A DNA stretch of 64,000 nucleotides from a virus (IMGVR_UViG_3300033075_000957:1-64000), one strand, 5' to 3'. Positions 4,883-50,825 are shown, numbered from the stretch's first letter. A program made the numbers and translations. The notes: generated by a model not told the origin, from the letters alone.

Positions 4883-4955
4883 TCCCTGATAACTCAGTTG
4901 GTAGAGTACCGAACTTTTAATTCGGGAGTCGTCGGTTCGAGCCCGACTCGGGGAA
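4883..4955 (+). tRNA. tRNA-Lys (anticodon TTT)
   Basis: Hand-folded cloverleaf: acceptor TCCCTGA/TCGGGGA, D-arm ACTC-AGTTGGTA-GAGT, anticodon stem CCGAA/TTCGG with loop CTTTTAA, T-arm GTCGG-TTCGAGC-CCGAC; 73 nt. Confidence 0.8.
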
Positions 4956-5799: not shown

Positions 5800-5954
5800 T
5801 GTTTGTAATTTTTTCTACTCTTTCCAACGCATATTGGTCTAAAAAATACGGATGGGTAGAGAATATTGAACTTGCAGACACTTATTCTGAATCAGAATGC
5901 AAGTCTCATTGTTTAACTAATTTAATATCTGATGCAGAATTTAGGAGACTTTAG
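5799..5954 (+). CDS. hypothetical small protein
   Basis: ATG at 5799 with GGAGCGGA RBS; hydrophobic N-terminus. Confidence 0.3.
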   Translation: MFVIFSTLSNAYWSKKYGWVENIELADTYSESECKSHCLTNLISDAEFRRL

Positions 5955-6348
5955 ATGAAGTATGACGCCAACACTTAATGTCCATCTATCGTATTGGCAA
6001 GCGTACGCTGTTCACAGCGTTTTGTCTTTTGCCCTGTCGTGGGTAGGAATAGGTTCGATGATGCAGAAGAAGCCCGAGCATCGCAATACCTCCACCGCAC
6101 TCAGTTTTGTGTTTAATTACATAATTACTTATTAATGATGAACCTATCCGCCTTACTACGTATGGCGTGACGGTACGGAATGGGTTACAATAGGTGCCCA
6201 AAGTTCCTTCGGTAAAAGAATAACCGCTGAAAGATTGCGGGTATGTGATTAGTATTTATCCTTTGATAAGCCAAAACGCAGGGAATAAGCCCCGGTCGAA
6301 GGATATGTGAACATCACTTCCGTATCGTTTATTTTTTGAGATATCAAT

Positions 6349-6882
6349 ATGACTAGGACTCAAAGAACTCAAAAAACCAGTCTCCGTCGTATTAATCTTC
6401 GTCAATCTCTTGCCCTTAAACGTGCTAAGGTTGGCATGCTCCTTGATGGTCTACAAGATGTTGGTAATATCGGAAGCATCATGCGTCTTACCAACGCTTT
6501 TGCAACCGAAGGTACGTATTATCTAGAACGTCAACAACTTTTTGGTATGCATAAATCTGCTGTAGGAACTCAGCATTTTGAAACTTTAGAGCGGATCGAT
6601 GCTAGTCAGTTAGAGACATTCTTATCCAAATTTGATAAGATTATCGCTATTGATAATAAAGTTGCCTTTAAAACTAAGCGTTTTGAAGAAATGGTATTCC
6701 ACCGTGATTCGTCATATCTTTTCATTCTAGGTAATGAATCGAATGGGATTTCGCTTCCTCTGCTTCGTCGGGCAGATACTATTTCTACGATTACACAATA
6801 TGGATGTGTCGGCTCGCTTAATGTGGCAGTAGCGGCAGCTATTGTTCTGTATGAATATCGAAAGCAGATTGGGTCGCCATAA
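6349..6882 (+). CDS. SpoU/TrmH-family (SPOUT) RNA 2'-O-methyltransferase
   Basis: Motifs LLDGLQDVGNIGSIMRLTNAF and FILGNESNGIS..SLNVAVAAAIVLYE match the SPOUT knot motifs. Confidence 0.7.
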   Translation: MTRTQRTQKTSLRRINLRQSLALKRAKVGMLLDGLQDVGNIGSIMRLTNAFATEGTYYLERQQLFGMHKSAVGTQHFETLERIDASQLETFLSKFDKIIAIDNKVAFKTKRFEEMVFHRDSSYLFILGNESNGISLPLLRRADTISTITQYGCVGSLNVAVAAAIVLYEYRKQIGSP

Positions 6883-7763
6883 TGCGAATTCGTCTAGACC
6901 GAAACGCTAATTATCGAGCAACGTTCTTGCCTAGCGGTAAAACGCTACGATTTAAGATTGATCCTTCCAAACCGTTCGCGGCTCCGGCAACACCGGAGAT
7001 TGAAGATGTTGCTATTAACGATAAGTGTCTAGCGAATTGCTCTTACTGCTATACTTCGGCCACTAAAGATGGCAAAAATTTCGATAACATTTGTAGAAAG
7101 GCCGAAGTAGTATGGGGTTCTTTATCTCCGCAGGAACGACCGTTTCAAATTGCTATCGGCGGTGCTGGCGAATCAACTCTGCATCCTAACTGGGTTGATT
7201 TCGTTCGTACCGTTAGGGATTTGGGGATACTTCCCAATTATACTACGAACGGAATGCATCTGTCTGATGACATTCTGTCGGCGACAGCCGAATATTGTGG
7301 TGGAGTTGCGTTATCGTGGCATCCTCATATTTCGCGAGTATTCACAGAAGCAGTCAAGAAATTGACATCAATCAAGAGTCGAGTCAACTTCCATATTATT
7401 GTCGGCACTCCCCAATCTCTTGAAGACGCGAAGCGTTTGTATGAACAATATAACGAAGTTGTAGAATACTTTGTGATACTTCCGTATCAAGCTGCTGGTC
7501 GTGGAACATCGATTGAAGTTGAAAGCACTTGGAAAGAATGCTTCGCTTGGATTTCAGGAGTAAACTCTCGAAAGTTTGCGTTTGGAGCGTTGTTTTATGA
7601 TTTTCTCAAGCGGTATCCAACGCAGTTGGATATGGATGTGTATGAGCCCGAAATCTTTTCAGGCTATCGTGTTCTGAACGAAACGTTTAGAACATTAAGA
7701 AAGTCATCTTATGACTTGCGACCTAAATCGCAACAACTTACTGTAAAAGGCTTAAATGTTTAA
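6882..7763 (+). CDS. radical SAM enzyme, family unresolved
   Basis: CLANCSYC (Cx3Cx2C) motif; CSYC resembles QueE/NrdG-type clusters; start overlaps the SpoU stop (ATGA). Confidence 0.6.
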   Translation: MRIRLDRNANYRATFLPSGKTLRFKIDPSKPFAAPATPEIEDVAINDKCLANCSYCYTSATKDGKNFDNICRKAEVVWGSLSPQERPFQIAIGGAGESTLHPNWVDFVRTVRDLGILPNYTTNGMHLSDDILSATAEYCGGVALSWHPHISRVFTEAVKKLTSIKSRVNFHIIVGTPQSLEDAKRLYEQYNEVVEYFVILPYQAAGRGTSIEVESTWKECFAWISGVNSRKFAFGALFYDFLKRYPTQLDMDVYEPEIFSGYRVLNETFRTLRKSSYDLRPKSQQLTVKGLNV

Positions 7764-8103
7764 CAAACCTATTGTCTTAACCATTTTCTCTGATCCTGAC
7801 CGGTGGCTACGTGAAAATCTACCTGATATTAATACGGATGGAATCGCTGCGTGTCAGCCGATTGAATCGATTAATTTAGGAGGAAATACTCGTTATATTG
7901 ATCAAGAAGAGGGTATAGAAAAAATCTGTACTTGGGAAGATCATGTAACTGCGTTGCGATTGCTTTGCGAACAAGTTGGCAAAACTTTGTTTGTAGGAGA
8001 TATTAAAAATCCGGCAGACCTTACAGACGCCGGATGTTGGGATGTTGAAGTAGCTGATGCGTATTTTCAATTGGTCTATCGACAGGAAGTAATTTATGGG
8101 TAA
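7756..8103 (+). CDS. hypothetical protein
   Basis: ORF 115 aa. Confidence 0.45.
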   Translation: MFNKPIVLTIFSDPDRWLRENLPDINTDGIAACQPIESINLGGNTRYIDQEEGIEKICTWEDHVTALRLLCEQVGKTLFVGDIKNPADLTDAGCWDVEVADAYFQLVYRQEVIYG

Positions 8104-8602
8104 ACAAATGATAGTTTTTCAGCCAGATCATGTCATTAATATCATAACCAATTCCTCATCGGAATTGTTTGTGTTTGCAGGTAATACTCGTGAAAATGTT
8201 GTCGATATGATCAAATCTGTTTATCCGAATTTTTTGGACGAATATTATGAACTTAAATGTTCGTCAGAATTGACTGATGATGAGATTCATACTTATCTGA
8301 ATTATCATTATGTTAATGAAGACGAATATCGAAACGGCATGTTCGCATCAGATTATGATCCTTGGCAATATGAAGTAATTCCCGGTTTTGAAAAAGATGA
8401 AATTTCAACTGAAGAGATCATCAATAATAAAAAATTTCGCCGGTTGGATGACAAAAAGATCAGTAAACATCGAGAACGGCTGATTAAACTAATGGACCCT
8501 TATGGGAAGAAACTCTTCCTATTTTCGAAGGATGATAATCCAAATTATGAAATGCAAAAGGCTTTAGAGGATATTGGAGGTGTGCGTTATCATCTAGGTT
8601 AG
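8096..8602 (+). CDS. hypothetical protein
   Basis: ORF 168 aa. Confidence 0.45.
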   Translation: MGKQMIVFQPDHVINIITNSSSELFVFAGNTRENVVDMIKSVYPNFLDEYYELKCSSELTDDEIHTYLNYHYVNEDEYRNGMFASDYDPWQYEVIPGFEKDEISTEEIINNKKFRRLDDKKISKHRERLIKLMDPYGKKLFLFSKDDNPNYEMQKALEDIGGVRYHLG

Positions 8603-8610
8603 GAGTAAAA

Positions 8611-8841
8611 ATGTATAGGCTTCATATTGATATTCCTCTTGCGATTAGTCAAGAGGTAGCGATTGATCGTGCTCAACATGCAGTAGCGATTGTTATCGAC
8701 GCCTTAAGGCGTGAAGATTGGGGTGAGGGTTTAGAGCTAAATTACCGTCTTGGTAATGATGACGATCGTGGTGCAAAAAATTATCTAGATATCAATGGAA
8801 ATGGCCATTGTTCGAACAAGAAAACACGAGTAACAATTTAA
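8611..8841 (+). CDS. hypothetical protein
   Basis: ORF 76 aa with GGAGTAAAA RBS. Confidence 0.4.
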   Translation: MYRLHIDIPLAISQEVAIDRAQHAVAIVIDALRREDWGEGLELNYRLGNDDDRGAKNYLDINGNGHCSNKKTRVTI

Positions 8842-8846
8842 TTACT

Positions 8847-8919
8847 GGGCCGGTATTTCAATTGGCAGAAACTGTGATTTATAATCGTGGATGTGTGGGT
8901 TCAAATCCCACCCGGCCCA
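8847..8919 (+). tRNA. tRNA with anticodon TAT (putative tRNA-Ile reading AUA), G·U-rich anticodon stem
   Basis: Acceptor GGGCCGG/CCGGCCC, D-arm TTTC-AATTGGCA-GAAA, anticodon stem TGTGA/TCGTG (three G·U pairs) with loop TTTATAA, T-arm GTGGG-TTCAAAT-CCCAC; 73 nt. Confidence 0.5.
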
Positions 8920-8932
8920 TTTGAGATGTCAT

Positions 8933-9193
8933 ATGTTTAAAATTATCTGGCCAGAAGAAAAGATTTTAACAGAAAAGCAGATTGTGAGCATATTCCAAGA
9001 TGCTATTGCAAATGACGATATTGATATAAAAACCACTACAGAAAAAGCTGTAAAACTTCATGAGGAAGGTTTGATTACTCTCCATAAAGACTGGAAGCGT
9101 TACGTAAATGGATATTATTGTCCAAAATGCGACATGGTTTATTATAACTGTCTTTGCAAACATAGGGAAACGACATGTACAACTATATTGTAA
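8933..9193 (+). CDS. hypothetical protein
   Basis: ATG at 8933 (MFKIIWPEEK..) is the first start clear of the tRNA; C-terminal CPKCD..CLC. Confidence 0.4.
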   Translation: MFKIIWPEEKILTEKQIVSIFQDAIANDDIDIKTTTEKAVKLHEEGLITLHKDWKRYVNGYYCPKCDMVYYNCLCKHRETTCTTIL

Positions 9194-9381
9194 CTTTCAC
9201 CGCTATTAACGGTGGGATTTCTACAATCTCCAATATCATTATCCAAGACTCGCCCAAAGATGTTAACACAGTTTTTGCAGAAATTGTAAAACAATACAAT
9301 CCAGAATGTATACTGATCATTCGTAATTACGAATTTGTTTTACAATGGTCAAGAGAAAAGGGTATAACGTTTCGGGTTTAG
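9175..9381 (+). CDS. hypothetical protein
   Basis: ORF 68 aa. Confidence 0.4.
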   Translation: MYNYIVTFTAINGGISTISNIIIQDSPKDVNTVFAEIVKQYNPECILIIRNYEFVLQWSREKGITFRV

Positions 9382-9451
9382 CTCGAACGGATAGGTGGTG
9401 GAATTGTAAAACATAAAGAAATTTTACATTTTCTCTTAAATATTCTGCCAT

Positions 9452-9469
9452 ACTAGTGTATACACTAGT
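9452..9469 (+). promoter_or_regulatory. perfect 18-bp palindrome ACTAGTGTATACACTAGT containing the TAGTGTATA promoter-like motif
   Basis: Immediately upstream of the ATG at 9472. Confidence 0.4.
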
Positions 9470-9471
9470 CT

Positions 9472-10089
9472 ATGGCACAAAAGAATGTAAAATCTTGGAC
9501 TGATGAACAATTATTAAAATGCTTTCCAAAAGCAACGAGCTATCATCATTTGGCTACAATGCTGGGATTAAAACGAATAAATCGTTCTGTTCAAAGAAAA
9601 ATTAAAGAATATAATTTGGACGTTTCCAATTTAGAAAAATTGCGTAAACAACATTATCGTATTGATAAAACAAACTATAAAATAGAAGAAGTTAAAAAAT
9701 TATGTGTTGAATCATATTCTTATGCTAGTATTTTACGAAAATTAGGTTTGAGAGATTGTGGTGGTAACTATGGAACATTAAAAAAATATATCAAGCAATT
9801 TAAAATTGATATTTCTCATTTTAAAAGGGAAAGTCATTTAGCTGGAAAAACTGGATTAACTAAAGAAAAATATAAAACTAAAGCAGGTATTAGAAATCAA
9901 CTTTTAGTTAAACGTGGACACAAATGTGAAAGATGTAAAAGAACAGAATGGGAAGGAGAACAAATAAAAATAGAAATGCATCATGTAGATGGAAACAATA
10001 AAAATAATGAAGAAAGTAATTTACAACTATTATGTCCGAATTGTCATTCTTTGACACCTAATTTTCGCGGACGAAATATAGCCAAATAA
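9472..10089 (+). CDS. HNH homing endonuclease
   Basis: CERCKRTEWEG..HHVDGNNKNNEESNLQLLCPNCH is an HNH motif; its own promoter palindrome; sits between two tRNAs. Confidence 0.7.
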   Translation: MAQKNVKSWTDEQLLKCFPKATSYHHLATMLGLKRINRSVQRKIKEYNLDVSNLEKLRKQHYRIDKTNYKIEEVKKLCVESYSYASILRKLGLRDCGGNYGTLKKYIKQFKIDISHFKRESHLAGKTGLTKEKYKTKAGIRNQLLVKRGHKCERCKRTEWEGEQIKIEMHHVDGNNKNNEESNLQLLCPNCHSLTPNFRGRNIAK

Positions 10090-10094
10090 TTATT

Positions 10095-10180
10095 GGGGAT
10101 GTGTCGAAATTGCCAAACGAACTTCACTTAAAATGAAGCGGTTCTTACGAACCTTACGGGTTGAAGTCCCGTCATCCCCA
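10095..10180 (+). tRNA. tRNA-Leu (anticodon TAA), type II
   Basis: Acceptor GGGGATG/CATCCCC, anticodon stem CTTCA/TGAAG with loop CTTAAAA, long variable arm GGTTC-TTAC-GAACC, T-arm ACGGG-TTGAAGT-CCCGT. D-loop has CC where G18G19 normally sit and the T-loop has G at position 56, a compensatory swap; 86 nt. Confidence 0.65.
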
Positions 10181-10194
10181 CTTAGGAAATAAAT

Positions 10195-10329
10195 ATGCAT
10201 AAGCAAACTATTTTTTCTATCAACCTCAATCATACGATTTACTTTCTTCCTACAGAAGAAGAAAAAATCAGTATTTGGAAAGAGATAGTTCATATTGAGA
10301 AAAGATGGGAACTTGGTAGTATTTACTGA
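10195..10329 (+). CDS. hypothetical 44-aa protein
   Basis: ATG 7 nt after AGGAAATAAAT; below ORF-track cutoff; the minus ORF 10090..10350 overlapping it is rejected. Confidence 0.3.
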   Translation: MHKQTIFSINLNHTIYFLPTEEEKISIWKEIVHIEKRWELGSIY

Positions 10330-10436
10330 GGCGTGCAGTTTAGAATCCATGGAGCGGGAAGACCTCTACCCGGAGAAGATGGAAACATTTATCAGTTTGA
10401 ATAACGCTGATTTAACAATTTTATGTATCTATTTAA

Positions 10437-10772
10437 TTGGAACTGAAGATGAATGATCCATTAGATCAGTTGCAATTTTCGGATTTCGGTCCTCATTTTA
10501 TGAAACAATCTTATCTCAACTCCTACGGAGTTGAAATAGTGGGAGATAAACCACACGAATATAGTAATAATGCGTTTACTATGATTTGGAAATATGGTTT
10601 TATGCAATGCACCTCACTATCTTTCGGACGTAAAATTGCAGAGGAATGGGCGTTTTATTTTGTATGGCACTGGCTTCGGGGAGGAGACTGTGCTGATTTA
10701 GATACAAAAGCGTGTAAATTTGTGGAAGCTTCTATACGCAAGCATCCGTATTATCGAAAGTATTGCTTATAA
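10437..10772 (+). CDS. hypothetical protein
   Basis: ORF 111 aa. Confidence 0.45.
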   Translation: MELKMNDPLDQLQFSDFGPHFMKQSYLNSYGVEIVGDKPHEYSNNAFTMIWKYGFMQCTSLSFGRKIAEEWAFYFVWHWLRGGDCADLDTKACKFVEASIRKHPYYRKYCL

Positions 10773-10794
10773 TATCAATCGAGGAAGCAGTCGT

Positions 10795-11427
10795 ATGCGG
10801 ATTAAATCGAACTTCAGAGATTATTACGACGGGCTTCAATCTTTAGATACTGACAAAAATACATTGTGGATTCGTCAGCAAAAAAGAGTTGAGGTTATCT
10901 TAAATAAAAACACTCCGAAGAACATACGTTATTTCTTCGAAGATACTTTTAGGATGGCTAAATGTTATAGAAATGTCGATACTTATACATATTGGTTGAT
11001 AGTAGGTATCGCTGGAAAAATGTACCCAATATGGGTTAAAAATAAACGTTTTATATACGATCAAAGTAAGCAACCCACTGTTAGGGACTATTGTTTTTAT
11101 AATTATCATTATAAGCAAAATCCTTGGTATCAAATCTATATTAATGACGAAATGTTGTTACAACATATGTTTGATACATATGGCCCGGTATGGTCTATTG
11201 GAACAGGCGAGTTGGCAGAGTCGATTAATTTTGTGAACTGTAATCCGCGTTTAGCGGATTATGGTTTTCATAAGTTCATGCCGGTACACGAAATTTACAA
11301 CGAGTTATACAAATTTCTGTGCAATTCTCAAAGGCTGCTCCGTCCGATTCCGGAAATGGATAACGATACGAAAATTCATCAGGCAGGATTTGATCTGAAA
11401 ACTTCTTTTAGAAAGTCTAAAAAATGA
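10795..11427 (+). CDS. hypothetical protein
   Basis: ATG at 10795 (MRIKSNFRDYYDGL..) with GAGGAAG RBS. Confidence 0.45.
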   Translation: MRIKSNFRDYYDGLQSLDTDKNTLWIRQQKRVEVILNKNTPKNIRYFFEDTFRMAKCYRNVDTYTYWLIVGIAGKMYPIWVKNKRFIYDQSKQPTVRDYCFYNYHYKQNPWYQIYINDEMLLQHMFDTYGPVWSIGTGELAESINFVNCNPRLADYGFHKFMPVHEIYNELYKFLCNSQRLLRPIPEMDNDTKIHQAGFDLKTSFRKSKK

Positions 11428-12380
11428 CATGGGATAAAATTGAGGTTAAATGCGACCCGCAAGGGCTAGTGTCTAAGTATATTTTTACGAGCAAAGATGC
11501 CGTATCTGAATCTGTTCTGTACCGTTATCCCACGTACTTAGAGCGTACAGTTATCTGTTGCAGTACCCAAAGCGGATGTCCGGTTGGTTGCCGTTTCTGT
11601 GGAACAGGCGACTTCTTTGTTCGCAATCTTAACCACGACGAGATTGTTTCTCAGCCGGTGCGGTTGTTGCAGGATACCAACATTGATCCGGCCACTATTA
11701 AGCGTTTACAGATTATGTTTATGAGCATGGGCGAGCCTATGCTTAACTGGCGTAATCTTCGTGAAGCACTTCATACTTTGTATCGACTGTATCCATCTGC
11801 ACGCTTACTAATCAGTACGATTGGTCCACGCAGGGATAATGATTTCTTTGATCTTAATTGTCTGTCAATCGATATCCCAACAATCGGGCTTCAATTTTCT
11901 GTACACGAATCATCGAACGCGGCCCGCGATCGTTTGATTCCGTTCAAAGCCAAATATACTCTTGAAGAAATCGCAACAAAGGGTGCTGAATGGCATACCG
12001 CATGTGGACGTAAACCGTTTTTTAATTATTGTGTCCACGATAAGAATAATTTGATCGAAGATGCAGAGCGTTTACGTGATCTGTTTGACCCGCGTATCTG
12101 GAACGCTACCCTATCGGTTATATGTGAACGTACCGAACATGTAACTGCTTCCAATGATTATCAAAGGCAACTTGCAATTGATTTTGGTAACATGATCGGA
12201 GACATGGGATATGATTTTAGAGTTTTTGATCCTGCCGGTGCCGATACAATAGGATCGGGATGTGGCCAATTATGGTTTGTTCAAGATTGGGCTTCGAAGC
12301 ACTCAGATAAAGTTAAACGTAGTTGTGGCAATGGTTTGCCAAAAGTACATACGCCCACATTAAATCAAAAACCGATTTAA
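11424..12380 (+). CDS. RlmN/Cfr-family radical SAM RNA methyltransferase
   Basis: CCSTQSGCPVGCRFCGTGDF matches the RlmN SSQVGCxxxCxFCATG cluster; MSMGEPMLNW matches MGMGEPLLN; C-terminal GADTIGSGCGQLW matches the conserved ACGQL cysteine motif. Confidence 0.7.
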   Translation: MTWDKIEVKCDPQGLVSKYIFTSKDAVSESVLYRYPTYLERTVICCSTQSGCPVGCRFCGTGDFFVRNLNHDEIVSQPVRLLQDTNIDPATIKRLQIMFMSMGEPMLNWRNLREALHTLYRLYPSARLLISTIGPRRDNDFFDLNCLSIDIPTIGLQFSVHESSNAARDRLIPFKAKYTLEEIATKGAEWHTACGRKPFFNYCVHDKNNLIEDAERLRDLFDPRIWNATLSVICERTEHVTASNDYQRQLAIDFGNMIGDMGYDFRVFDPAGADTIGSGCGQLWFVQDWASKHSDKVKRSCGNGLPKVHTPTLNQKPI

Positions 12381-13133: not shown

Positions 13134-13455
13134 ACAACACGGATTTGGTCCGTGGTATATAAATTCAGATACTTACAGAGCGTATCCTCGCGGGCGATGC
13201 TTCGATTCAAAATATCGGTTTGCTGCTCACAACTACAAGTCTTTAAAGTTTTGGATAGAGATGTTAAGAGATGAGATTGAAAATCCGCCTTCTGATTTTG
13301 AAGTTCGTATATACAGAGTAAAAAAGAAATTCACGAGATCAACAGATAAAGACAGATTATTATCGGAAAAATTGTTTGTTGTAAAACGGTCTAAACTTTT
13401 AGGAAAAATATGTTTGGATAAATTATACGGAAAATTACAAAATGATTGTCAATAA
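13099..13455 (+). CDS. hypothetical protein
   Basis: ORF 118 aa, overlaps the previous gene by 35 nt. Confidence 0.4.
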   Translation: MATKILYRIVHKQHGFGPWYINSDTYRAYPRGRCFDSKYRFAAHNYKSLKFWIEMLRDEIENPPSDFEVRIYRVKKKFTRSTDKDRLLSEKLFVVKRSKLLGKICLDKLYGKLQNDCQ

Positions 13456-13975
13456 AGAAATTTCCAACGCTTTACATTTTGCAATCCAAGCACATAATGG
13501 ACAAAAACGTTCTCACGGAGGACCGTATGTCCTGCATGTTATTCGCGTAGCCGAACGCGTTTCAGCTAATCTTCAAATTGATATGCTGAATAATTGGCAC
13601 GTTGGTAATAACGGATGGTATACCGATACCATTTGTGCCGCTTTATTACATGACACGTTAGAAGATACCACTGTAACGAGCAATGATTTAAAATCACGTT
13701 TTGGAGAACGTGTAGCAACGATGGTAAAAAGTCTAACAACTGACGGTTTAAATAACGAAGAACTTTATTCAAAAGCAAAAACGTGGCATTATTATACTCG
13801 TATTATTAAATTAGCAGATATTTATGATAACGTAAAAGAAGGCCAGTTATCATGGAGTTCTGAAAGAATTAAACGTTATGCGGCCAATAAAGCCGATTTT
13901 ATTCGTAGTTGTTTTAATGTTGCTGATGTCGGTTATAATGAAACACTTCGATTATGTGAGGAATCTCAATTATGA
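13442..13975 (+). CDS. HD-domain phosphohydrolase (RelA/SpoT-type HD)
   Basis: HGGPYVLHVIRVAE .. AALLHDTLEDT is a His..HD motif. Confidence 0.6.
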   Translation: MIVNKEISNALHFAIQAHNGQKRSHGGPYVLHVIRVAERVSANLQIDMLNNWHVGNNGWYTDTICAALLHDTLEDTTVTSNDLKSRFGERVATMVKSLTTDGLNNEELYSKAKTWHYYTRIIKLADIYDNVKEGQLSWSSERIKRYAANKADFIRSCFNVADVGYNETLRLCEESQL

Positions 13976-15144
13976 GCAGTCTAATCGTTCAAATTCGTAC
14001 TATTACCAATATTCGTCCGCATAAAAATCCGGAAAAGACTCGAATAGAGATTGCGGAAATTGATGGATGGCAATCCATTATTCCCAAGGGACAATATGCC
14101 GTTGGCGATAATGTCGTATTTATTCCGCCCGATTCGGTAATGACCAAAGAAATCTCCGATAAGTTAGGAGTTACTAACTATTTAAAGAATGGTCGAGTAA
14201 CGTCAATCAAACTCGGCGGAGAAATGTCTTTTGGTATTATTGTAAAACCTGATCAGAATTGGCCGGTTGGCACCGACGTTGCTGAGCACTATCAGATTAC
14301 AAAATACGAGCCGCCAATAGTAACTCGTAATGGTAATTGTCCTCCCGGTACGGCTCCGCAAAATCCTCGATTCTTCCATAAATTTACAGATATTGAGAAT
14401 ATTCGACACTTTAAGACTGTTTTGGACGGTCACGAAGTAATATGTCTCGAAAAGATTCACGGAGCAAACTGGCGGGCATGTCTTGGATATAATGAGAACG
14501 GTACGAAAGAGTTCGTAGTGGGTTCACGCAATACCGTTCGTAAGGTACCTACTAAAAAGATTTCGGTCTTACCGTGTAATAAACTTCACGCATTATACTT
14601 AAAGTTACGTCGTTTTGTTGGTTTTGAGAAGATGGAAGAGGTGTTTGATATTAATGCGGCACGCAAGGATTGGTATCATCATGTTCTGTGTAATCAGGCA
14701 GAGTTTGGTAATGTCCAAAAAATGATCGAAGATATATCGCGTCATACTGGTGCTATGAATGTAGCGTTATATGGCGAAACGTTTGGCGATGGTATCCAAA
14801 ACATGACGTATGGAAAAACCAATGGCCAGATGGGTTTTGTCGCTTTTGCATTGGCAGTTGATTACAAATACGTTGATTATGATGTATTCATCAATTGGTG
14901 CGTAATGTACGATATACCTACTGCACCACTTGTGTACCGTGGACCGTATCTCTTCGATACTATACGATCATTATCGAGCGGTAAGTCGCTGATTAAAGAT
15001 GCGAATCATATTCGTGAAGGCGTAGTGGTTTTGCCCACAAAAGAAATGCATGGCCCATCTGGTAGAATTATTTTCAAATCAATTAACGATGATTATCTGC
15101 TAAGTAAGGAATCGGGTAAGATTAGTGATAGTACTGATTCGTAA
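13972..15144 (+). CDS. RNA ligase (Rnl2-like nucleotidyltransferase) with N-terminal tRNA-binding OB-fold (Trbp111/CsaA/Myf-like) domain
   Basis: N-terminus VQIRTITNIRPHKNPEKTRIEIAEIDG..YAVGDNVVFIPPDSVM matches the tRNA-binding-domain pattern (V..HP.ADKL..VDVG..IVSGA.N...GD.V.VA); EKIHGANW matches ligase motif I (KxHG, as in T4 Rnl2 KIHGTN). Confidence 0.6.
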   Translation: MSSLIVQIRTITNIRPHKNPEKTRIEIAEIDGWQSIIPKGQYAVGDNVVFIPPDSVMTKEISDKLGVTNYLKNGRVTSIKLGGEMSFGIIVKPDQNWPVGTDVAEHYQITKYEPPIVTRNGNCPPGTAPQNPRFFHKFTDIENIRHFKTVLDGHEVICLEKIHGANWRACLGYNENGTKEFVVGSRNTVRKVPTKKISVLPCNKLHALYLKLRRFVGFEKMEEVFDINAARKDWYHHVLCNQAEFGNVQKMIEDISRHTGAMNVALYGETFGDGIQNMTYGKTNGQMGFVAFALAVDYKYVDYDVFINWCVMYDIPTAPLVYRGPYLFDTIRSLSSGKSLIKDANHIREGVVVLPTKEMHGPSGRIIFKSINDDYLLSKESGKISDSTDS

Positions 15145-28293: not shown

Positions 28294-29303
28294 AAAAAAT
28301 TATTAGTTTATTGACTAGTCTATTAGTTGTTAGCAGTATCATTGGTTGTCGTCCCTATGATACCCCCGAATACGTTGAGATAAAGCCAAACGAAACCGCT
28401 TTCGCTATTCCAATGGAAGGGAATACTGACGAGCAGAAAAGTTTTGAATCCGAAAACTTTTTGCGGAAAAATATGGTCGCTGCCAAACGGATTGAAGTTC
28501 CACACAGATGGAATAAAACTGGACGGTTTTACTTTAACGGTGACTACATTGATCTCATTCGCGTAGTAACCGTCGATCGTGCTCCGGTAAATCGATACTG
28601 GACTAATGAAAAGAATGATGCAATCCAAGTAGAGACTAATGATTCCGTTGGAATGAGTGTAGATATTACGTGTACAGCGATGATCGAGCAGCCGAATACA
28701 CCGCTCTTTCTGTACCGTTATTCTTCTGGCTCGCTAGCGACAGTAATGGATAACGAAATTCGTGCCAAAATTCAGACCGAACTTACCGAAGAAGTCGCCA
28801 AGTATCCACTAGAACAGGTGAAGGCAAACAAAGGTAAGATTATGGAAGCGGTTCGACCAGAAGTTGTGGCGTTTTTTGCAGAACGCGATGTTACCATTAC
28901 AACTCTTGGTATAGGTGGCGGTTTAAACTATCTGAATCCAAAGATTCAAGAATCAATCGATAAAACCGTGCAGGATCAACAATTAGCTATTAGTGCCGAA
29001 GCACGGTTTCAGGCACAGTTAAAAGAAAATGAAACTACTAAAATTACCGCATTAGCATTAGCAGAAGCTACTAGATCGAAGGCACAAGGAGAGGCCGATT
29101 CTATTAAGATGTTAGCTGATGCTAAGGCTTACGAAATAGATAAGATGAAGCAAAATCCAGAATCGTATGTGCAGCTTAGAAATTTAGAGAATTTTAATCT
29201 ATTAATTTCTCGATGGAACGGAACGCTTCCGGTCTATAATATGAATATGGGAGGGAATGGGACTTTACCCAATATACTCATGAATATGCCAGTTGAGAAA
29301 TAA
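28290..29303 (+). CDS. SPFH/band-7 (prohibitin-like) lipoprotein
   Basis: TTG start (L)KKIISLLTSLLVVSSIIGC lipobox after GGAGAAAA; C-terminal half has band-7 helical repeats (QAQLKENETTKITALALAEATRSKAQGEAD). Confidence 0.5.
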   Translation: MKKIISLLTSLLVVSSIIGCRPYDTPEYVEIKPNETAFAIPMEGNTDEQKSFESENFLRKNMVAAKRIEVPHRWNKTGRFYFNGDYIDLIRVVTVDRAPVNRYWTNEKNDAIQVETNDSVGMSVDITCTAMIEQPNTPLFLYRYSSGSLATVMDNEIRAKIQTELTEEVAKYPLEQVKANKGKIMEAVRPEVVAFFAERDVTITTLGIGGGLNYLNPKIQESIDKTVQDQQLAISAEARFQAQLKENETTKITALALAEATRSKAQGEADSIKMLADAKAYEIDKMKQNPESYVQLRNLENFNLLISRWNGTLPVYNMNMGGNGTLPNILMNMPVEK

Positions 29304-29327
29304 AATAATTTATACATACGTGAAAGC

Positions 29328-29338
29328 GTGTGTATAAT
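29328..29338 (+). promoter_or_regulatory. GTGTGTATAAT promoter-like motif upstream of the Y-RNA-like array
   Basis: Same motif family as upstream of about 11 other genes. Confidence 0.4.
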
Positions 29339-29404
29339 ATTTGGGGCCGAAGATTTTTGCTTATCTCTTGTAATGAAACAGCAATTATCACTATATGCCC
29401 CGTG

Positions 29405-29530
29405 CGAACGGTAGCCGAGCAGTTAGGCGGCAGCAAAAAAGATATCCTTAGTCGCTTATACCCTATTGGGTCGAAGACATAGGATTAACACTGGGGCTGT
29501 TATACGATGGTGCAATTCCATCCCGTTCGA
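29405..29530 (+). ncRNA. tRNA-like module A (acceptor CGAACGG/CCGTTCG, D hairpin GCCG..CGGC, T-arm GATGG-TGCAATT-CCATC) with a ~75-nt insert replacing the anticodon arm
   Basis: Hand fold; the insert contains a CCTAT[TGGGTCGAAGAC]ATAGG hairpin. Confidence 0.4.
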
Positions 29531-29701
29531 TTTGGGCCGAAGATAATCGGTTATCCAACTCTTTTTAGTGTTTGCCCGCAAGGGCTTCCGAGAGTCACTA
29601 TGCCCATTTACCCGTGCTAGGCAATGGTGCCGATCTTTCTTTCATACCGGTTGTTCGTTAGAAAGAAAAGGTAGTTCGATTCTACCAGACGGGGTTTGAT
29701 G

Positions 29702-29816
29702 GTACGTTCCGCTAGGGCGGGAATGGTTTGTCTAATCATGTCCTTTCATGGGCCGAAAGATAAACCTTATCTTATCTGAAAACAAGATTCGGTGGGTTCG
29801 AATCCCACAACGTATC
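29702..29816 (+). ncRNA. tRNA-like module C (acceptor GTACGTT/AACGTAT, hairpin CCGC-TAGG-GCGG, T-arm GTGGG-TTCGAAT-CCCAC) with an insert containing ATGGGCCGAAAGATA
   Basis: Hand fold. Confidence 0.4.
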
Positions 29817-29922
29817 CTTTGGCGAGATAGCTTAATGGTTAGAGCACTAAATCCCCTGAACGAATTATATCCTTATGGGTCGATAGGATAGAGCCATTGT
29901 CTGGTGGAGATAGAGTTTTGAG

Positions 29923-30630
29923 TTATAGTTCTAACTTCTGGTTTATTAAATTTACAATAATTGTTAAAAAGGGTTTTGCGTTCGATTTTTTAAAATATTT
30001 TAATTGAGAACTATCAATAATTACCAATTCAATTTCTTTTTCCAAACACGCCTGAAACTTTCTAGTATCATTGTTTTGAATAGATTTTAATTTTTCTTCA
30101 CCATAAATAGGCTCGTAATGAAAAATGCCATTAAGTTCAAAAGCTAATTTTAAAGAAGGAATATAAATATCTAATTCAGAATTAATAGTATCTTTACGGT
30201 TAAAATGAAATTCTAGATTTGGATAGTGTGCTATTAATTCTTTTTCTAAATATATTTCTAATTTACTACGTCGATATCCAATAGTTTTATGTGTGTTATT
30301 ATAAGTAGTGGCACAAGAAGACGAGCAAAATCGATTTTTACCAATTTTTGCACTAAAAACTCGTGTAAATAGTTTTAAACAGTATGTACATTCATATTGA
30401 AAACAAGAACCAAAATACAAAGATTTGCATTTTTTAGTACAAAACATCATTCTTTTTTTTCTTCTAGAATCGCGTATGCTAGATTTTAATCGATAAATAA
30501 TTTGTTTACATTGAGGACATTTTAAAGATAATTTATGGAAATGCTCAGACTCAAAATACTGATCTTCGGTAAATAATGGAATCATGTGAAGCATATACAC
30601 TAATAGAAATAAAATTTTCAAAACACACAT
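29923..30630 (-). CDS. homing-endonuclease-like protein (Zn-ribbon CxxC repeats plus PD-(D/E)xK-like domain)
   Basis: CPQCKQ..C..C, CTYC..CSSSC modules; ELDIYIPSLKLAFELNG..H resembles a PD-(D/E)xK core; lies between the Y-RNA-like array and the Ro60 gene. Confidence 0.5.
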   Translation of the reverse strand: MCVLKILFLLVYMLHMIPLFTEDQYFESEHFHKLSLKCPQCKQIIYRLKSSIRDSRRKKRMMFCTKKCKSLYFGSCFQYECTYCLKLFTRVFSAKIGKNRFCSSSCATTYNNTHKTIGYRRSKLEIYLEKELIAHYPNLEFHFNRKDTINSELDIYIPSLKLAFELNGIFHYEPIYGEEKLKSIQNNDTRKFQACLEKEIELVIIDSSQLKYFKKSNAKPFLTIIVNLINQKLEL

Positions 30631-30752
30631 TCACCATTTAAATTATTTCCATGTGTTTTATGAATAGATGCAATTATTGTTATACTGAAATAATTGATGG
30701 TGTTAAATAAAAGGTAACGTTTTAGTCCCATAAGGGCAGAAGGATATCGAAT

Positions 30753-32363
30753 ATGGCAAATTACGGAAACAGTCTCAAAAATCGTAAACGCACTCCGATC
30801 ACCGAAGCGGTGCCCGGTACAGCAATGGTGCCAAATAATGGCGGTGGATATGGTTATGTCGTAGACGACTTCATTCGTTTACAACGATTTCTGATTCTCG
30901 GATCGGACGGCGGTACCTACTATGTCGGCGAACGGGAGTTAACGGTTCAGAATGCTGAATGCATTACTAGATGCCTAAATTCTGATTACAAGCGTGCTAT
31001 TGATATGATCGTTAATATTAGCGATCAAGGTCGTGCTCCAAAGAATAGTCCTGCGGTTTTTGCTTTGGCAATGGCCGCTGCTCACGAAGGCAGCAACGCT
31101 CGCGAATGCCGTAAATATGCACTCGCTAACTTAGCCAAGGTCTGTCGTATCGGTACACATCTCTTTGAGTTTACCGAATACGTTACTAAAATGCGTGGAT
31201 GGGGGCGTTTGCTTAGAGACGGAGTTGCTTCGTGGTATACAGATATGGACGAGGAACGCCTTGCCTATCAGGTAATTAAGTACCCACAACGTACTATTAC
31301 TGAAGGTAACGCTTCTTCCGCATGGTCGCATAAGGACATCTTACGGTTATCCCGCCCATCTGGTAATAAAAACCATCAAACTATCTACAATTACATCCAT
31401 TCCGGAGAATTTAAATCTAGAGCAGAATCGCTCGCGATTATTGCTGGAACTGAAAAGATTAAACTGGCAAAAAATATAGATGAATGTGTAAAACTTATTT
31501 CTAAATATAATCTTCCTCATGAAGTTGTACCTAAGCAGTTTGCGAATTCGAAAGAAGTTTGGGAAACTTTGCTACCTAATCTTCCTGCTACTGCCCTGAT
31601 TCGTTCTCTTGGCCGCATGCAATCCTATGGATTATTTGAAAACGGTTCTGAATCTCTTAGGATTGCTTTAGAGAAAATTAGCGATGTAAATTGGTTGAAA
31701 AAGAGCCGTATGCATCCCCTCAATATTCTTATTGCCCAGCGTACCTATACTACTGCACACGGAACAAAAGGAAATCTTACATGGACGCCAAATCCGCAAA
31801 TTACGGAAGCTCTTGAAAAGGCATTCTATAATGCGTTTGACTATGTAGAGCCTTCTGGCAAAAACTTACTAATTGCTGTAGATATTTCTGGTAGTATGAT
31901 ATCTCGTTTTGGTACTTTTAATATTAGTTCCTGCGAAGTTGCGGCTGTTTTAGCTATGGTTGCTGCCCGAAGAGAACCTAGCTCATATATTGTCGGATTC
32001 GCTTCTCAGATTGTTGATCTAAAAATTACTAAAAATGATACTCTCGAATCTGCGTGCAAGAAATGCCAAGGAAACTGGGGTTCAACAAATTGTGCTGCTG
32101 CGATAGATCACGCAATCCAGCATCGTTTAAACGTGGATGCTTTTCTAATCATCACCGACAATGAGTCTAATACCGGTGTGCATCCTGCACAAGCTATTAA
32201 ACAATATAGAAATCAGGTTAACAAACCGAATGCTAAACTGATAAGTTTAGCGACTACAAGTACTCGTACTACAATTAATGATCCTAACGATTTCGATTGC
32301 CTCGATCTTGTCGGATTCGATACTGCGGTACCAGAACTTATCACGAATTTCATTCGCGAATAA
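30753..32363 (+). CDS. rsr: Ro60 ortholog (TROVE domain plus vWA domain; bacterial Rsr-like)
   Basis: 536 aa; N-terminal TROVE-like region (FIRLQRFLILGSDGGTYY); C-terminal vWA domain with MIDAS motif LLIAVDISGSM and ITDNESNTG; the size and architecture match bacterial Rsr. Confidence 0.7.
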   Translation: MANYGNSLKNRKRTPITEAVPGTAMVPNNGGGYGYVVDDFIRLQRFLILGSDGGTYYVGERELTVQNAECITRCLNSDYKRAIDMIVNISDQGRAPKNSPAVFALAMAAAHEGSNARECRKYALANLAKVCRIGTHLFEFTEYVTKMRGWGRLLRDGVASWYTDMDEERLAYQVIKYPQRTITEGNASSAWSHKDILRLSRPSGNKNHQTIYNYIHSGEFKSRAESLAIIAGTEKIKLAKNIDECVKLISKYNLPHEVVPKQFANSKEVWETLLPNLPATALIRSLGRMQSYGLFENGSESLRIALEKISDVNWLKKSRMHPLNILIAQRTYTTAHGTKGNLTWTPNPQITEALEKAFYNAFDYVEPSGKNLLIAVDISGSMISRFGTFNISSCEVAAVLAMVAARREPSSYIVGFASQIVDLKITKNDTLESACKKCQGNWGSTNCAAAIDHAIQHRLNVDAFLIITDNESNTGVHPAQAIKQYRNQVNKPNAKLISLATTSTRTTINDPNDFDCLDLVGFDTAVPELITNFIRE

Positions 32364-32472
32364 TGATATGAGTGCGATTCCGTAACTGAAAAAAAGGATT
32401 TCCTCACGGAGTGCCGAGAAATCGGCAGACACTTTCGGACGGGCCGTGAGATAGGAAAAACATGCACTTATT

Positions 32473-32544
32473 AGGATACTAGTTCACCGGAAGAACGCTC
32501 GCTTGATAAGCGAGAAGTACTTGGTTCAACTCCAAGGTATCCTA
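32473..32544 (+). tRNA. tRNA-Ile (anticodon GAT)
   Basis: Acceptor AGGATAC/GTATCCT, D-arm GTTC-ACCGGAA-GAAC, anticodon stem CTCGC/GCGAG with loop TTGATAA, T-arm CTTGG-TTCAACT-CCAAG; 72 nt. Confidence 0.7.
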
Positions 32545-32548
32545 TGAA

Positions 32549-32634
32549 TACTAGGTGGCCGAGGTTGGTCGATGGCACAAAACTGTTAATTTTGCGGCGA
32601 AAGCCCGTCGTAGGTTCAAATCCTACCCTAGTAG
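32549..32634 (+). tRNA. type-II (long variable arm) tRNA, identity uncertain; the 7-nt loop CTGTTAA reads as anticodon GTT
   Basis: Acceptor TACTAGG/CCTAGTA perfect, D-stem GCC/GGC with 13-nt loop, anticodon stem CAAAA/TTTTG, variable arm CGGCGAAAGCCCGTC, T-arm GTAGG-TTCAAAT-CCTAC; 86 nt. Confidence 0.5.
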
Positions 32635-32720
32635 TTTAATCAGCAATGTGCTGATAAATTTGCGGCATATGCCGCGTTCACCCTTGTTGCTTATGGCAAC
32701 AATATTGAAAGGATAGTAGT

Positions 32721-33083
32721 ATGATTCGTAGATATGTTCGAGTTCCTGACGGCAATCATCGCGAAGATGGCAGTTTAAGCCGTGGTCGTCCTGTTGGTCT
32801 AGTACTAGGTGAAAATAGAAATGGTATTATACATCTTGGATATTCAAGATGTTCGGATGCTGATCAGTATAATCCGCAATCGGCCGATCAAATTGCTCTC
32901 AGTCGTTTACAATCATCTGAATTCTGGTATGATTCTAATAATGATACTTATTCTGGTGATTTAACTCGTGATCTTTATTCATCATTTTCTGATATGATTG
33001 AGGAGATTGAATGGGTTATTACAGAAACTCTAGATCATCCAGAACGAAATTGTCGAATGCCTAAATATAGTTCAGCAAATTAA
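32721..33083 (+). CDS. hypothetical protein
   Basis: GAAAGGATAGTAGT RBS. Confidence 0.45.
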   Translation: MIRRYVRVPDGNHREDGSLSRGRPVGLVLGENRNGIIHLGYSRCSDADQYNPQSADQIALSRLQSSEFWYDSNNDTYSGDLTRDLYSSFSDMIEEIEWVITETLDHPERNCRMPKYSSAN

Positions 33084-33087
33084 TAAT

Positions 33088-33116
33088 GGTCCCGTGAAAA
33101 CGGGATCATTTATTTT
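33088..33116 (+). terminator. rho-independent terminator
   Basis: GGTCCCG-TGAAAA-CGGGATC stem-loop followed by ATTTATTTT. Confidence 0.55.
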
Positions 33117-48076: not shown

Positions 48077-48223
48077 GCTATTGACTGCAATAGCAGTTTA
48101 TCAGTGTGTGGGGTAGCAGCCGCCCGCTTGCTTTGGGAGCAAGTATACGCAAGTGCAATTCTTGCCACATTGACTTTGGGCCAGTAACTCAATATGTAGA
48201 GTGCCGATTTTGCAAATCGGAGG

Positions 48224-50740: not shown

Positions 50741-50825
50741 GACAGAGTAGGCAAGAGGCATAACCCGGTGGTGTACGGCCACCGCCCTTCAATGGTGTCA
50801 ACGGTTCGAATCCGTTTCTCTGTCA
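50741..50825 (+). tRNA. tRNA-like gene, paralog-like to the downstream tRNA-Tyr but with a non-canonical anticodon loop (TGTACGG) and one extra nucleotide before the 3' acceptor strand
   Basis: Acceptor GACAGAG/CTCTGTC perfect, T-arm AACGG-TTCGAAT-CCGTT, D region GGCAAGAGGCATAA aligns with the tRNA-Tyr D region GGCAAGCGGCAAAG, same 16-nt variable-arm length; the hairpin GGTGG-TGTACGG-CCACC puts G at position 33. Confidence 0.4.

Follow-up and report, generated by a model that had tools for sequence, protein, structure and literature searches.

A SpoU-type methyltransferase, a viral radical-SAM module and an RlmN/Cfr-like methylase in the tRNA-rich arm of a large phage

Introduction

Do the enzyme genes at positions 6349-12380 of a 64,000-nucleotide stretch of viral DNA (IMGVR_UViG_3300033075_000957:1-64000, hereafter the window) work together in modifying RNA? 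A preliminary description had proposed a two-enzyme operon of a SpoU methyltransferase (ORF1) and a radical-SAM protein (ORF2), followed by an RlmN/Cfr-like methylase (ORF3) that could act on host ribosomes or on tRNAs encoded by the phage. The three ORFs were located on the plus strand with the motifs quoted for them (CLANCSYC, GCPVGCRFCGTG, MGEPMLN and CGQL), and the contig is phage-like, as had been supposed. The best explanation of the locus as a whole, which we regard as fairly likely, is nevertheless that of three functionally independent genes and not of a single RNA-modification operon, since comparison of related loci showed no link between SpoU and ORF2 and no enrichment of tRNAs near RlmN-like genes. 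Two of the three genes plausibly modify RNA, and the third is part of an undescribed module found almost exclusively in viral contigs. A literature search did not find papers on the families of ORF1, ORF2 or ORF3.

Gene content of the region

The setting is an accessory arm of a large phage that is rich in tRNA genes, and all features described here are on the plus strand. ORF1 (6349-6882, 177 aa) encodes a divergent, minimal RNA 2'-O-methyltransferase of the SpoU/TrmH family (SPOUT) and ORF2 (6882-7763, 293 aa) a radical-SAM enzyme whose family is almost confined to viral contigs. An ORF of 115 aa (7756-8103) overlaps by 8 nt both with ORF2 and with the following gene (8096-8602, 168 aa), referred to below as the ORF2 partner. 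These four genes overlap end to end and are almost certainly co-transcribed in this phage, and the overlaps leave room for a lineage-specific functional link. The junction between ORF1 and ORF2 reads TAATG, an overlap of 1 nt; the ATGA coupling that had been ascribed to it is found at 11424, between ORF3 and the ORF upstream. The 115-aa ORF had no match in Pfam, PHROG or PADLOC and none by BLASTP against 87 loci, and membership of the partner family was ruled out, as a partner-family HMM and phmmer were both blank.

Further downstream follow genes for tRNA-Ile (UAU) (8846-8920; ARAGORN, Rfam RF00005 56 bits), an HNH homing-type endonuclease (9472-10089; PF01844 25.6 bits, phrog_10822 E=5e-34) and tRNA-Leu (UAA) (10095-10181; ARAGORN only, below the Rfam gathering score). 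Both tRNAs have A37, and their position between the enzyme genes is as first described. The ORF at 10720-11427 matches phrog_4243 (E=4e-7, residues 26-235) and probably starts at the Met at residue 26 (~10795); it shares the ATGA overlap with ORF3 (11424-12380, 318 aa), and its homologues are absent from 83 loci with RlmN-like genes. Beyond ORF3 lie an HD_4 (RelA/SpoT-type HD) phosphohydrolase (13442-13975; PF13328 46.5 bits, phrog_990 E=3e-33) and an RNA ligase that has an OB domain at its N-terminus (13972-15144; PF09414 57.5 bits, PF21189 28.9 bits, phrog_968 E=8e-39), and a tRNA-Lys (UUU) gene is situated upstream of the cluster (4883-4955; Rfam 65.9 bits).

ORF1, a divergent SpoU-type methyltransferase

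A Pfam search matched ORF1 to PF00588 with 79.2 bits (cut-off 29.7) over profile positions 4-142 of 142. Alignment to the TrmH and RlmB structures 7qiu, 1zjr and 5kzk showed that the catalytic motifs are intact, with GNIGSIMR (N40..R46) as motif 1, GNESNG as motif 2 and GSLNVAVAAAIVLYE, containing SLNV, as motif 3. ORF1 thereby carries the N..R, GNE.G and SLNV signatures of TrmH/RlmB-type SpoU enzymes, and in size it resembles a minimal TrmH- or TrmL-like enzyme, whereas the L30e-like N-terminal domain of RlmB is lacking. Judged from its sequence, ORF1 is a very divergent member of the SpoU/TrmH family with all three catalytic motifs, in agreement with the preliminary description. The top NCBIfam matches were RlmB (63.6 bits, cut-off 160) and TrmH (42.7 bits, cut-off 227), and identification as RlmB, TrmH, TrmL, TrmJ or NshR was rejected as all equivalog scores fell well under their cut-offs. 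Relatives are rare: 18 matches at E<=1e-10 were obtained among 1.84e9 representatives, the nearest 39% identical, with eight weak INPHARED matches for sequenced phages and zero IMG/VR matches in a scan for close relatives. Most likely, ORF1 would act as a stand-alone SAM-dependent enzyme that 2'-O-methylates ribose in a structured RNA, presumably tRNA or rRNA. Its 29 N-terminal residues are basic (9 R/K, zero D/E), and this tail probably serves in RNA binding.

ORF2 and its partner form a viral two-gene module

Homologues of ORF2 were found at 84 loci, mostly viral, and a SpoU-like ORF was present at none of them, either by BLASTP or with a SpoU profile HMM that gave 181 bits for its positive control (±8 kb around the homologue, but ±6 kb for four loci). 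What accompanies ORF2 is instead a small protein with the N-terminal motif HSxxDxITNSS[ST]E, present at 84/84 loci in one to six copies each. In the window this is the partner at 8096-8602, in which the motif reads DHVINIITNSSSELF and which ends in RYHLG-COOH. The closest relatives of ORF2 (68-70% identity) have the partner directly downstream and lack SpoU. Conversely, the related phage L170 encodes a SpoU protein 59% identical to ORF1, and neither ORF2 nor the partner occurs within the 20 kb examined there. Taken together, ORF2 and the 8096-8602 protein constitute a two-gene module, nearly all examples of which are in viral contigs, and the proposed pairing of SpoU with ORF2 in a two-enzyme operon finds no support. 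The HSxxDxITNSS[ST]E segment is invariant and predicted to be flexible, forming the low-confidence N-terminal part of the structure model, and most members end in aromatic-x-Gly. Partner paralogues are divergent, and the termini are the sole parts that they share.

ORF2 itself has the features of the radical SAM superfamily, with CX3CX2C at C49/C53/C56 (CLANCSYC, residues 49-56), a GGE-type SAM motif (GGAGE) and a partial TIM barrel. SPASM/twitch cysteines and a C-terminal Cys motif are absent, and the only further conserved Cys is C139, within the barrel. QueE, NrdG and viperin were rejected as identities, with scores under the family cut-offs. At the sequence level there were only weak N-terminal matches, to viperin, a tungsten-cofactor maturase and GDGT-MAS. 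The predicted ORF2 model is nearest to SkfB and SuiB, with 250-260 residues aligned and Z above that of viperin, and the fold groups most closely with radical-SAM maturases that modify peptides or proteins (SkfB, SuiB, PqqE, anSME) and not with RNA enzymes. The earlier view of ORF2 as an RNA-modification enzyme thus comes close to being overturned. ORF2 also differs from SkfB, SuiB, PqqE, anSME and ChlB, as it has neither the SPASM/twitch cysteines nor a recognisable RRE domain, its partners, at 100-290 aa, are folded proteins and not short peptides, and its family is almost restricted to viral contigs. As the likeliest mechanism, ORF2 would generate a 5'-deoxyadenosyl radical and then modify the partner post-translationally at one of its conserved termini (N or C). 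The invariant polar motif of the partner could instead be a catalytic site.

ORF3 and the RlmN/Cfr family

In ORF3 the hallmark motifs lie at residues 51-62 (GCPVGCRFCGTG), 102-108 (MGEPMLN) and 280-283 (CGQL). The cluster cysteines C52/C56/C59 align with RlmN C125/C129/C132, and the two extra cysteines are kept as C45 (E. coli RlmN C118, Cfr C105) and C280 in CGQL (RlmN C355, Cfr C338). All of these are invariant across 20 aligned sequences, as are the equivalents of E105, GEP, N184, S233, H235 and N286. In RlmN, C355 is the methyl carrier and C118 resolves the cross-link (PMC13001441, PMC5130265). ORF3 further shares with RlmN and Cfr the radical-SAM core, the GEP, S-x-H and N286 motifs and a beta-sheet extension before the core, and its top PDB matches are Cfr 9p0p and RlmN 6fz6. 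From the shared catalytic residues a ping-pong methyl-synthase chemistry is expected, in which a SAM-derived methyl group would be placed on C280, an H atom abstracted, the methylene added to adenine C2 or C8 and the cross-link finally resolved by C45.

The designation of ORF3 as RlmN is right as to homology and mechanistic residues, but it fails at the level of the equivalog. Against TIGR00048 (RlmN) the score was 95.5 bits (cut-off 290), with model positions 78-342 of 355 matched from residue 13 onwards, and against Cfr it was 76.0 bits for TIGR04432 (cut-off 550) and 80.7 bits for NF000424 (cut-off 530). About 85 RlmN residues are unmatched in the alignment and the N-terminal HhH2 domain, through which Cfr and RlmN contact rRNA (PMC13001441), is absent. 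ORF3 differs also by a clade-specific insertion past the core strand and by a conserved, basic C-terminal tail of ~35 residues. In an NJ tree its clade is separate, with 25-26% identity to RlmN and Cfr as compared to 36-38% between these two. Relatives with 47-60% identity occur in 13 phage genomes, cultured or uncultured; relatives are also encoded in 172 IMG/VR stretches and by a prophage in Cupriavidus necator, and the clade is thus one of phages and prophages, not of a housekeeping or plasmid resistance gene. On these comparisons ORF3 belongs to a third, phage- or prophage-borne clade of class-A radical-SAM methylases that is widespread and unstudied. The enzyme probably C-methylates adenine in RNA. 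Since the rRNA-docking HhH2 domain is missing, the presumed target may be another RNA and position than A2503 or A37, and the basic tail may stand in for the missing RNA-binding domain.

A link between ORF3 and the neighbouring phage tRNAs, which had also been suggested, found no backing: tRNAs were near RlmN-like genes at 15/80 loci, compared with 24/80 control loci, and the Ile-UAU, Leu-UAA and Lys-UUU tRNAs are not of the type modified by E. coli RlmN (PMC5130265). In Stenotrophomonas phage ANB28 the RlmN-like copy sits within a tRNA cluster. Among the 83 RlmN-like loci we found no obligate neighbour and no SpoU gene. The commonest neighbours, judged from their sequences, were putative genes of NAD salvage (NAMPT, NMNAT-Nudix; 22-23 loci) and a putative macro domain (14 loci), and an RNA ligase was nearby at eight.

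Alternative explanations

The reading closest to the preliminary description, a SpoU-ORF2 operon for RNA modification together with an RlmN/Cfr orthologue that methylates host 23S A2503 and/or A37 of phage tRNA, could draw on the TAATG overlap on one strand, on the retention of every RlmN/Cfr catalytic residue in ORF3, on the tRNA genes between the enzyme genes, on the tRNA-cluster setting of the ANB28 copy, and on the joint presence of SpoU and the RlmN-like gene in two related phages. We consider it very improbable, as SpoU is missing from every comparison locus of either radical-SAM gene, ORF2 is invariably accompanied by another partner, ORF3 lacks the rRNA-binding domain (PMC13001441) and scores far under the equivalog cut-offs, tRNAs accompany RlmN-like genes no more often than they do the control gene, and the adjacent tRNAs are of the wrong type for RlmN (PMC5130265). 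It is likewise unlikely, although less so, that ORF2 acts on a nucleotide or small molecule like viperin, BlsE or MoaA, with the NSSS-motif proteins as accessory or downstream enzymes and not substrates; the product could, for example, be a chain-terminating or modified nucleotide, directed against the host or used for genome modification. Such a substrate is suggested by the lack in ORF2, as in viperin, of the auxiliary clusters usual in most peptide maturases, by the viperin matches as the sole specific similarities in sequence (NF038283 32 bits, PADLOC pVip 38.7 bits) and by a partner motif rich in residues of catalytic type (H, S, D, T, N, S, S, E). Against this, those matches are confined to the first ~100 residues, the cluster- and SAM-binding part, and lie far under the cut-off of 180; the SkfB and SuiB alignments are much longer and have higher Z; no nucleotide-metabolism gene consistently adjoins ORF2 homologues; and one to six divergent paralogues that share only their termini are more reminiscent of multi-precursor RiPP-type loci than of a fixed pathway. 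Modification of the partner by ORF2 is consequently the reading that we prefer for this module.

For the remaining genes, SpoU, the RlmN-like methylase, the RNA ligase and the HD phosphohydrolase might together be a phage toolkit for tRNA protection and repair, by analogy with T4 Pnkp/Rnl1 and the bacterial Pnkp/Hen1 system. Methyl groups on ribose or base at or near cut sites in the anticodon loop would keep host anticodon nucleases from acting, and tRNAs already cut would be rejoined by the ligase. We hold this to be rather doubtful compared with three independent genes, as the associations are weak (no obligate neighbour, SpoU at 0/83 RlmN-like loci, tRNAs not enriched), a kinase-phosphatase (Pnkp) was not identified in the interval and the functional links would all derive from gene content. 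In its favour, L170 retains the RlmN-like gene (79% identity) and the RNA ligase (Rnl, 56%) together with SpoU, and this set common to the two phages fits the broader idea of an RNA-modification set. The ligases found near RlmN-like genes are in line with the toolkit, as is the tRNA-Lys (UUU) gene just upstream, this tRNA being the classical target of PrrC. The same applies to the putative NAD-salvage and macro-domain neighbours, as genes of these kinds act in counter-defence.

Organization of the region and its tRNA genes

The window represents the accessory arm of a large phage, and the region considered here is most readily understood as three accessory genes or modules that are independent of each other. 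ORF calling returned the three genes, all on the + strand, that the preliminary description had listed: a SpoU gene at 6349-6882 (ORF1, 177 aa), a radical-SAM gene at 6882-7763 (ORF2, 293 aa) and an RlmN/Cfr-like gene at 11424-12380 (ORF3, 318 aa). The motifs claimed for them were also recovered, i.e. CLANCSYC in ORF2 and GCPVGCRFCGTG, MGEPMLN and CGQL in ORF3. The ATGA coupling said to join the SpoU gene to ORF2 was not found, as the actual junction reads TAATG with a 1-base overlap; an ATGA overlap is located at the start of ORF3. Further genes in the window encode an RNA ligase, an HD phosphohydrolase, an HNH endonuclease, a Ro60/TROVE protein, NAMPT, ThyX and a class II RNR. Megablast found no near-identical phage genome in INPHARED. 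A promoter and terminator scan was uninformative, with signals no higher than the shuffled expectation. The ~400 nt 5' of the SpoU gene (5954-6349) hold no convincing ORF and no Rfam match, and a terminator-like hairpin lies ahead of the gene at 6005-6020.

ARAGORN predicted 11 tRNA genes in the window. Two are situated between the noted genes on the + strand, tRNA-Ile(UAU) at 8846-8920, which also reached the Rfam gathering score, and tRNA-Leu(UAA) at 10095-10181, which fell below it. Upstream of these genes is tRNA-Lys(UUU) (4883-4955, +), detected by ARAGORN and by Rfam at the gathering score. The two callers disagreed at tRNA-Leu(UAA), at 48178-48250 (+), where an extra tRNA was found by Rfam and missed by ARAGORN, and at 50741-50825, where ARAGORN called a tRNA-Val(UAC) with G at position 37 and Rfam gave none at the gathering score. 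An HNH endonuclease gene (9472-10089, +) ends 5 nt short of tRNA-Leu(UAA) and looks like a homing-endonuclease insertion into the tRNA cluster.

ORF2 is accompanied by a small NSSS protein

The SpoU gene and ORF2 had been proposed to form a two-enzyme operon. We compared the neighbourhoods of 84 ORF2 loci, 80 from IMG/VR contigs and four from jumbo-phage-like contigs of >400 kb, over ±8 kb (±6 kb for the four jumbo-like loci). BLASTP and a SpoU profile HMM, for which the SpoU protein of the window served as positive control (181 bits), found no SpoU-like ORF near ORF2 in any of them (0/84), and on this basis the coupling was rejected. In the related phage contig L170 the SpoU gene is present with neither ORF2 nor the partner described below in the 20 kb examined. 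In a phage genome with such tight packing, adjacent genes made the operon a plausible inference, which is corrected here.

When all neighbouring ORFs were clustered de novo, one single family proved to occur in 84/84 ORF2 loci, in 1-6 copies each, a small protein with an NSSS motif near its N-terminus. In all inspected loci but one the copies share the strand of ORF2 and are adjacent to it or within ~5 kb, and in the closest ORF2 relatives (68-70% identity) the partner is directly downstream and overlapping, with DUF3228 or another non-SpoU gene as the 5' neighbour of ORF2. The copy in the window (8096-8602, 168 aa) scored 84 bits on the family HMM. The 115-aa ORF at 7756-8103 (ending ...IYG) was considered as a degenerate NSSS paralogue and rejected, since phmmer and the family HMM gave no support.

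Both termini of the NSSS family are conserved features. The N-terminal signature is [KNQ][IVL][HQ]S-x-x-D-[VLI]-I-T-N-S-S-[ST]-E-[LI]-[FY], and its core, [TS]NSS[ST], was present in 157 of the 164 unique members, with N-S-S invariant. A C-terminal glycine (RYHLG, xRDG, xYDG, xYNG) is found in 59% of the members, as compared to 2.5% of the other ORFs in these loci, and in 90% the last five residues include an aromatic one or His. The family had no match in Pfam or PHROG, and fold searches gave just generic ferredoxin/ACT-like matches in PDB and none in BFVD. Among remoter relatives, no NSSS motif was found within ±4 kb of the ORF2 homologue (27%) of Microcystis phage Ma-LMM01. In Vibrio phage D479 a distant ORF2-like gene (27% identity, 401 aa) has, 1.4 kb upstream of it, a 132-aa ORF (~2029-2427) with FVSNSSSSSFVI ('FVSNSSSSSF') close to the N-terminus, suggesting that the NSSS signature may reach beyond the close family.

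ORF2 itself scored 26.3 against the Pfam Radical_SAM model, slightly below the threshold of 29.5, and its remaining sequence matches are weak and N-terminal only (viperin, a tungsten-cofactor maturase and GDGT-MAS). The family is tight, at ~285 aa and around 60% identity, and comprises at least 402 matching clusters at 90% identity. Invariant positions are numerous and include C49/C53/C56 and GGAGE; no auxiliary-cluster cysteines were found in the family. Inteins interrupt some members; two homologues (P0039 and P0100, 416-419 aa) have Hint/intein domains (PF07591, PF14890). The genes in which inteins settle are usually ones that matter to the phage. In a set of 185,579 species genomes, relatives of ORF2 were confined to 4 short MAG contigs.

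Taken together, the constant partner, the lack of SpoU, the pattern in L170 and the near-absence from species genomes argue that ORF2 and the NSSS protein form a separable two-gene module. This module, which has no name in PHROGs, is nearly absent from bacterial genomes and almost confined to viral contigs, where large and jumbo phages commonly have it; in this phage the SpoU gene happens to be its neighbour. As the most economical mechanism, the radical-SAM chemistry of ORF2 would modify one or the other conserved terminus of the NSSS partner. As the main alternative, ORF2 would act on a nucleotide or small molecule, and the NSSS protein would be an accessory enzyme. If ORF2 does modify its partner, the module would introduce a post-translational modification or cross-link of a new kind, placed at the conserved termini of the 1-6 proteins encoded with it. 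As a source of new radical-SAM protein chemistry the module is a clean candidate.

ORF3 belongs to a phage clade beside RlmN and Cfr

The RlmN/Cfr call for ORF3 stands as to family and catalytic residues, and fails as to RlmN or Cfr proper. The best PDB matches were Cfr (9p0p) and RlmN (6fz6). In an alignment of 20 sequences, including E. coli RlmN, S. aureus Cfr and Bacillus RlmN, the residues E105, C118, C125/C129/C132, G179-E180, S233, H235, N286, C355, G356 and L358 (RlmN numbering) were invariant, and the equivalents of M178, P181, N184 and Q357 each differed in one sequence. The two non-cluster cysteines, C355 and C118 in RlmN, have been assigned as methyl carrier and cross-link resolver, respectively (PMC13001441; see also PMC5130265). 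From these residues, the adenine C-methyl synthase chemistry is very likely conserved in ORF3.

However, ORF3 is outside RlmN or Cfr proper. It scored 95.5 bits against the NCBIfam RlmN model (TIGR00048, cut-off 290), with a match that starts at model position 78, and 76-81 bits against the Cfr models (cut-offs 530-550). RlmN and Cfr share 36-38% identity, whereas ORF3 has 25-26% with each of them; in an NJ tree the phage ORF3-type sequences formed a clade of their own. ORF3 lacks a counterpart to the first ~85 residues of RlmN, which make up the N-terminal HhH2 domain; in place of this region the phage proteins of the clade have a conserved, net-basic C-terminal tail (WFVQDW...G.G.P.VHTP). 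In Cfr, cryo-EM showed that the N-terminal HhH2 domain provides a basic surface that anchors the enzyme at the H90-H92 junction of 23S rRNA (PMC13001441). A large phage sister clade of RlmN/Cfr that has very likely kept the chemistry and has lost the substrate-docking domain raises the question of what phages methylate.

Members of this clade are abundant. The best 120 metagenomic matches to ORF3 all had 59-79% identity and were mostly ~310-330 aa, and clade-specific peptides were present in 172 IMG/VR stretches. Thirteen INPHARED genomes carry relatives (47-60% identity), namely phages of Stenotrophomonas, Xanthomonas, Salmonella (Arash), Vibrio and Aeromonas and a 462-kb uncultured phage; these copies are annotated as RlmN, 'prohibitin', 'radical SAM, partial' or hypothetical. 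A relative in Cupriavidus necator sits in a prophage, and plasmids gave only true cfr and rlmN (<31% identity to ORF3). One RlmN-like homologue (P0135, 547 aa) is fused to a histidine-phosphatase domain (PF00300), a possible functional hint.

Neighbourhood analysis of 83 RlmN-like loci found no obligate partner, and the SpoU profile HMM found no SpoU near these genes (0/83). The commonest neighbours, putative identities judged by eye from representative sequences, were NMNAT-Nudix (23/83), NAMPT (22/83), a macro-like domain (14/83) and RNA ligase (8/83). The NAMPT, NMNAT-Nudix and macro neighbours suggest that the RlmN-like gene resides in NAD-salvage or counter-defence islands. The window has a NAMPT gene of its own at 35195-36637 (+; PF04095, PF18127).

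The neighbouring phage tRNAs had been offered as possible targets of ORF3, and this link found no support. A tRNA gene was present within ±8 kb in 15/80 RlmN-like loci as compared to 24/80 ORF2 control loci, and with 0.66 vs. 1.47 tRNAs per 10 kb an enrichment near RlmN-like genes was rejected. The tRNAs Lys-UUU, Ile-UAU and Leu-UAA of the window all have A37 and are outside the substrate set of E. coli RlmN, which consists of tRNAs Arg-ACG, Asp, Gln, Glu and His (PMC5130265).

ORF1 is a minimal SpoU protein

The assignment of ORF1 to the SpoU/SPOUT family was borne out, with 79.2 bits against PF00588 (cut-off 29.7) over the entire profile, and alignment to solved TrmH/RlmB-type structures showed the three SpoU motifs to be intact (GNIGSIMR, GNESNG and GSLNVAVAAAIVLYE). 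None of the characterised subfamily models came near its cut-off (RlmB 63.6 vs. 160, TrmH 42.7 vs. 227). The protein is minimal in size, with a basic N-terminal tail and without an L30e-type domain. It is also isolated: just 18 matches with E<=1e-10 were found among 1.84 billion cluster representatives, the nearest at 39% identity, INPHARED gave eight weak matches only, and a close-relative scan of IMG/VR gave none. An orthologue with 59% identity is present in L170 (162,929 bp). We take ORF1 to be a genuine SPOUT 2'-O-methyltransferase of RNA that is probably active.

Significance and further observations

The window phage and L170 have the SpoU gene, the RlmN-like gene and the RNA ligase in common, an association confined to this lineage. 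These genes fit a loose RNA modification and repair theme, possibly one that protects tRNA or rRNA from host nucleases. In L170 a peptide deformylase gene (PF01327, 8665-9093), another translation-related accessory gene, lies between the RNA ligase and the RlmN-like gene.

To our knowledge, RlmN and Cfr are the sole characterised adenine C-methylating enzymes of RNA, and Cfr matters in the clinic as a determinant of multidrug resistance. A search of the accessible literature library found no publications on phage RlmN-like/Cfr-like enzymes, phage radical-SAM maturases or the ORF2/NSSS module; the ORF3-type enzyme is new as a variant of RlmN/Cfr chemistry, and the ORF2 module is undescribed. 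We advance only tentatively, and as rather doubtful in its entirety, the combined proposal that a domain-truncated RlmN/Cfr-type phage clade C-methylates adenine at a phage-chosen target and that ORF2/NSSS is a near-exclusively viral radical-SAM protein-maturation system. The phage clade also raises the question whether its methylation alters the drug sensitivity of ribosomes or evades tRNA-targeting defence. An m8A or m2A mark at A2503 of the host ribosome would make phages a reservoir for resistance of the Cfr type to antibiotics or toxins of the peptidyl-transferase centre; a target in tRNA anticodon loops would amount to a new counter-defence directed at tRNA-cleaving immunity.

Two further loci in the window deserve mention. 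A Ro60/TROVE and vWA protein is encoded at 30753-32363 (+; PF05731 121.8 bits, PF25045 155.3 bits), with tRNA-Ile and tRNA-Asn directly 3' (32472-32634) and an odd 84-nt 'tRNA-Glu' 5' of it (29611-29694), which was called by ARAGORN only, with the anticodon at position 31, and not by Rfam. A Y-RNA/YrlA-like partner RNA is one possibility here; the stretch 29250-33200 yielded no Y-RNA family in an Rfam E-value scan. The class II (B12-dependent) ribonucleotide reductase gene (60052-62985, +) includes a LAGLIDADG homing-endonuclease domain, which suggests an intein insertion.
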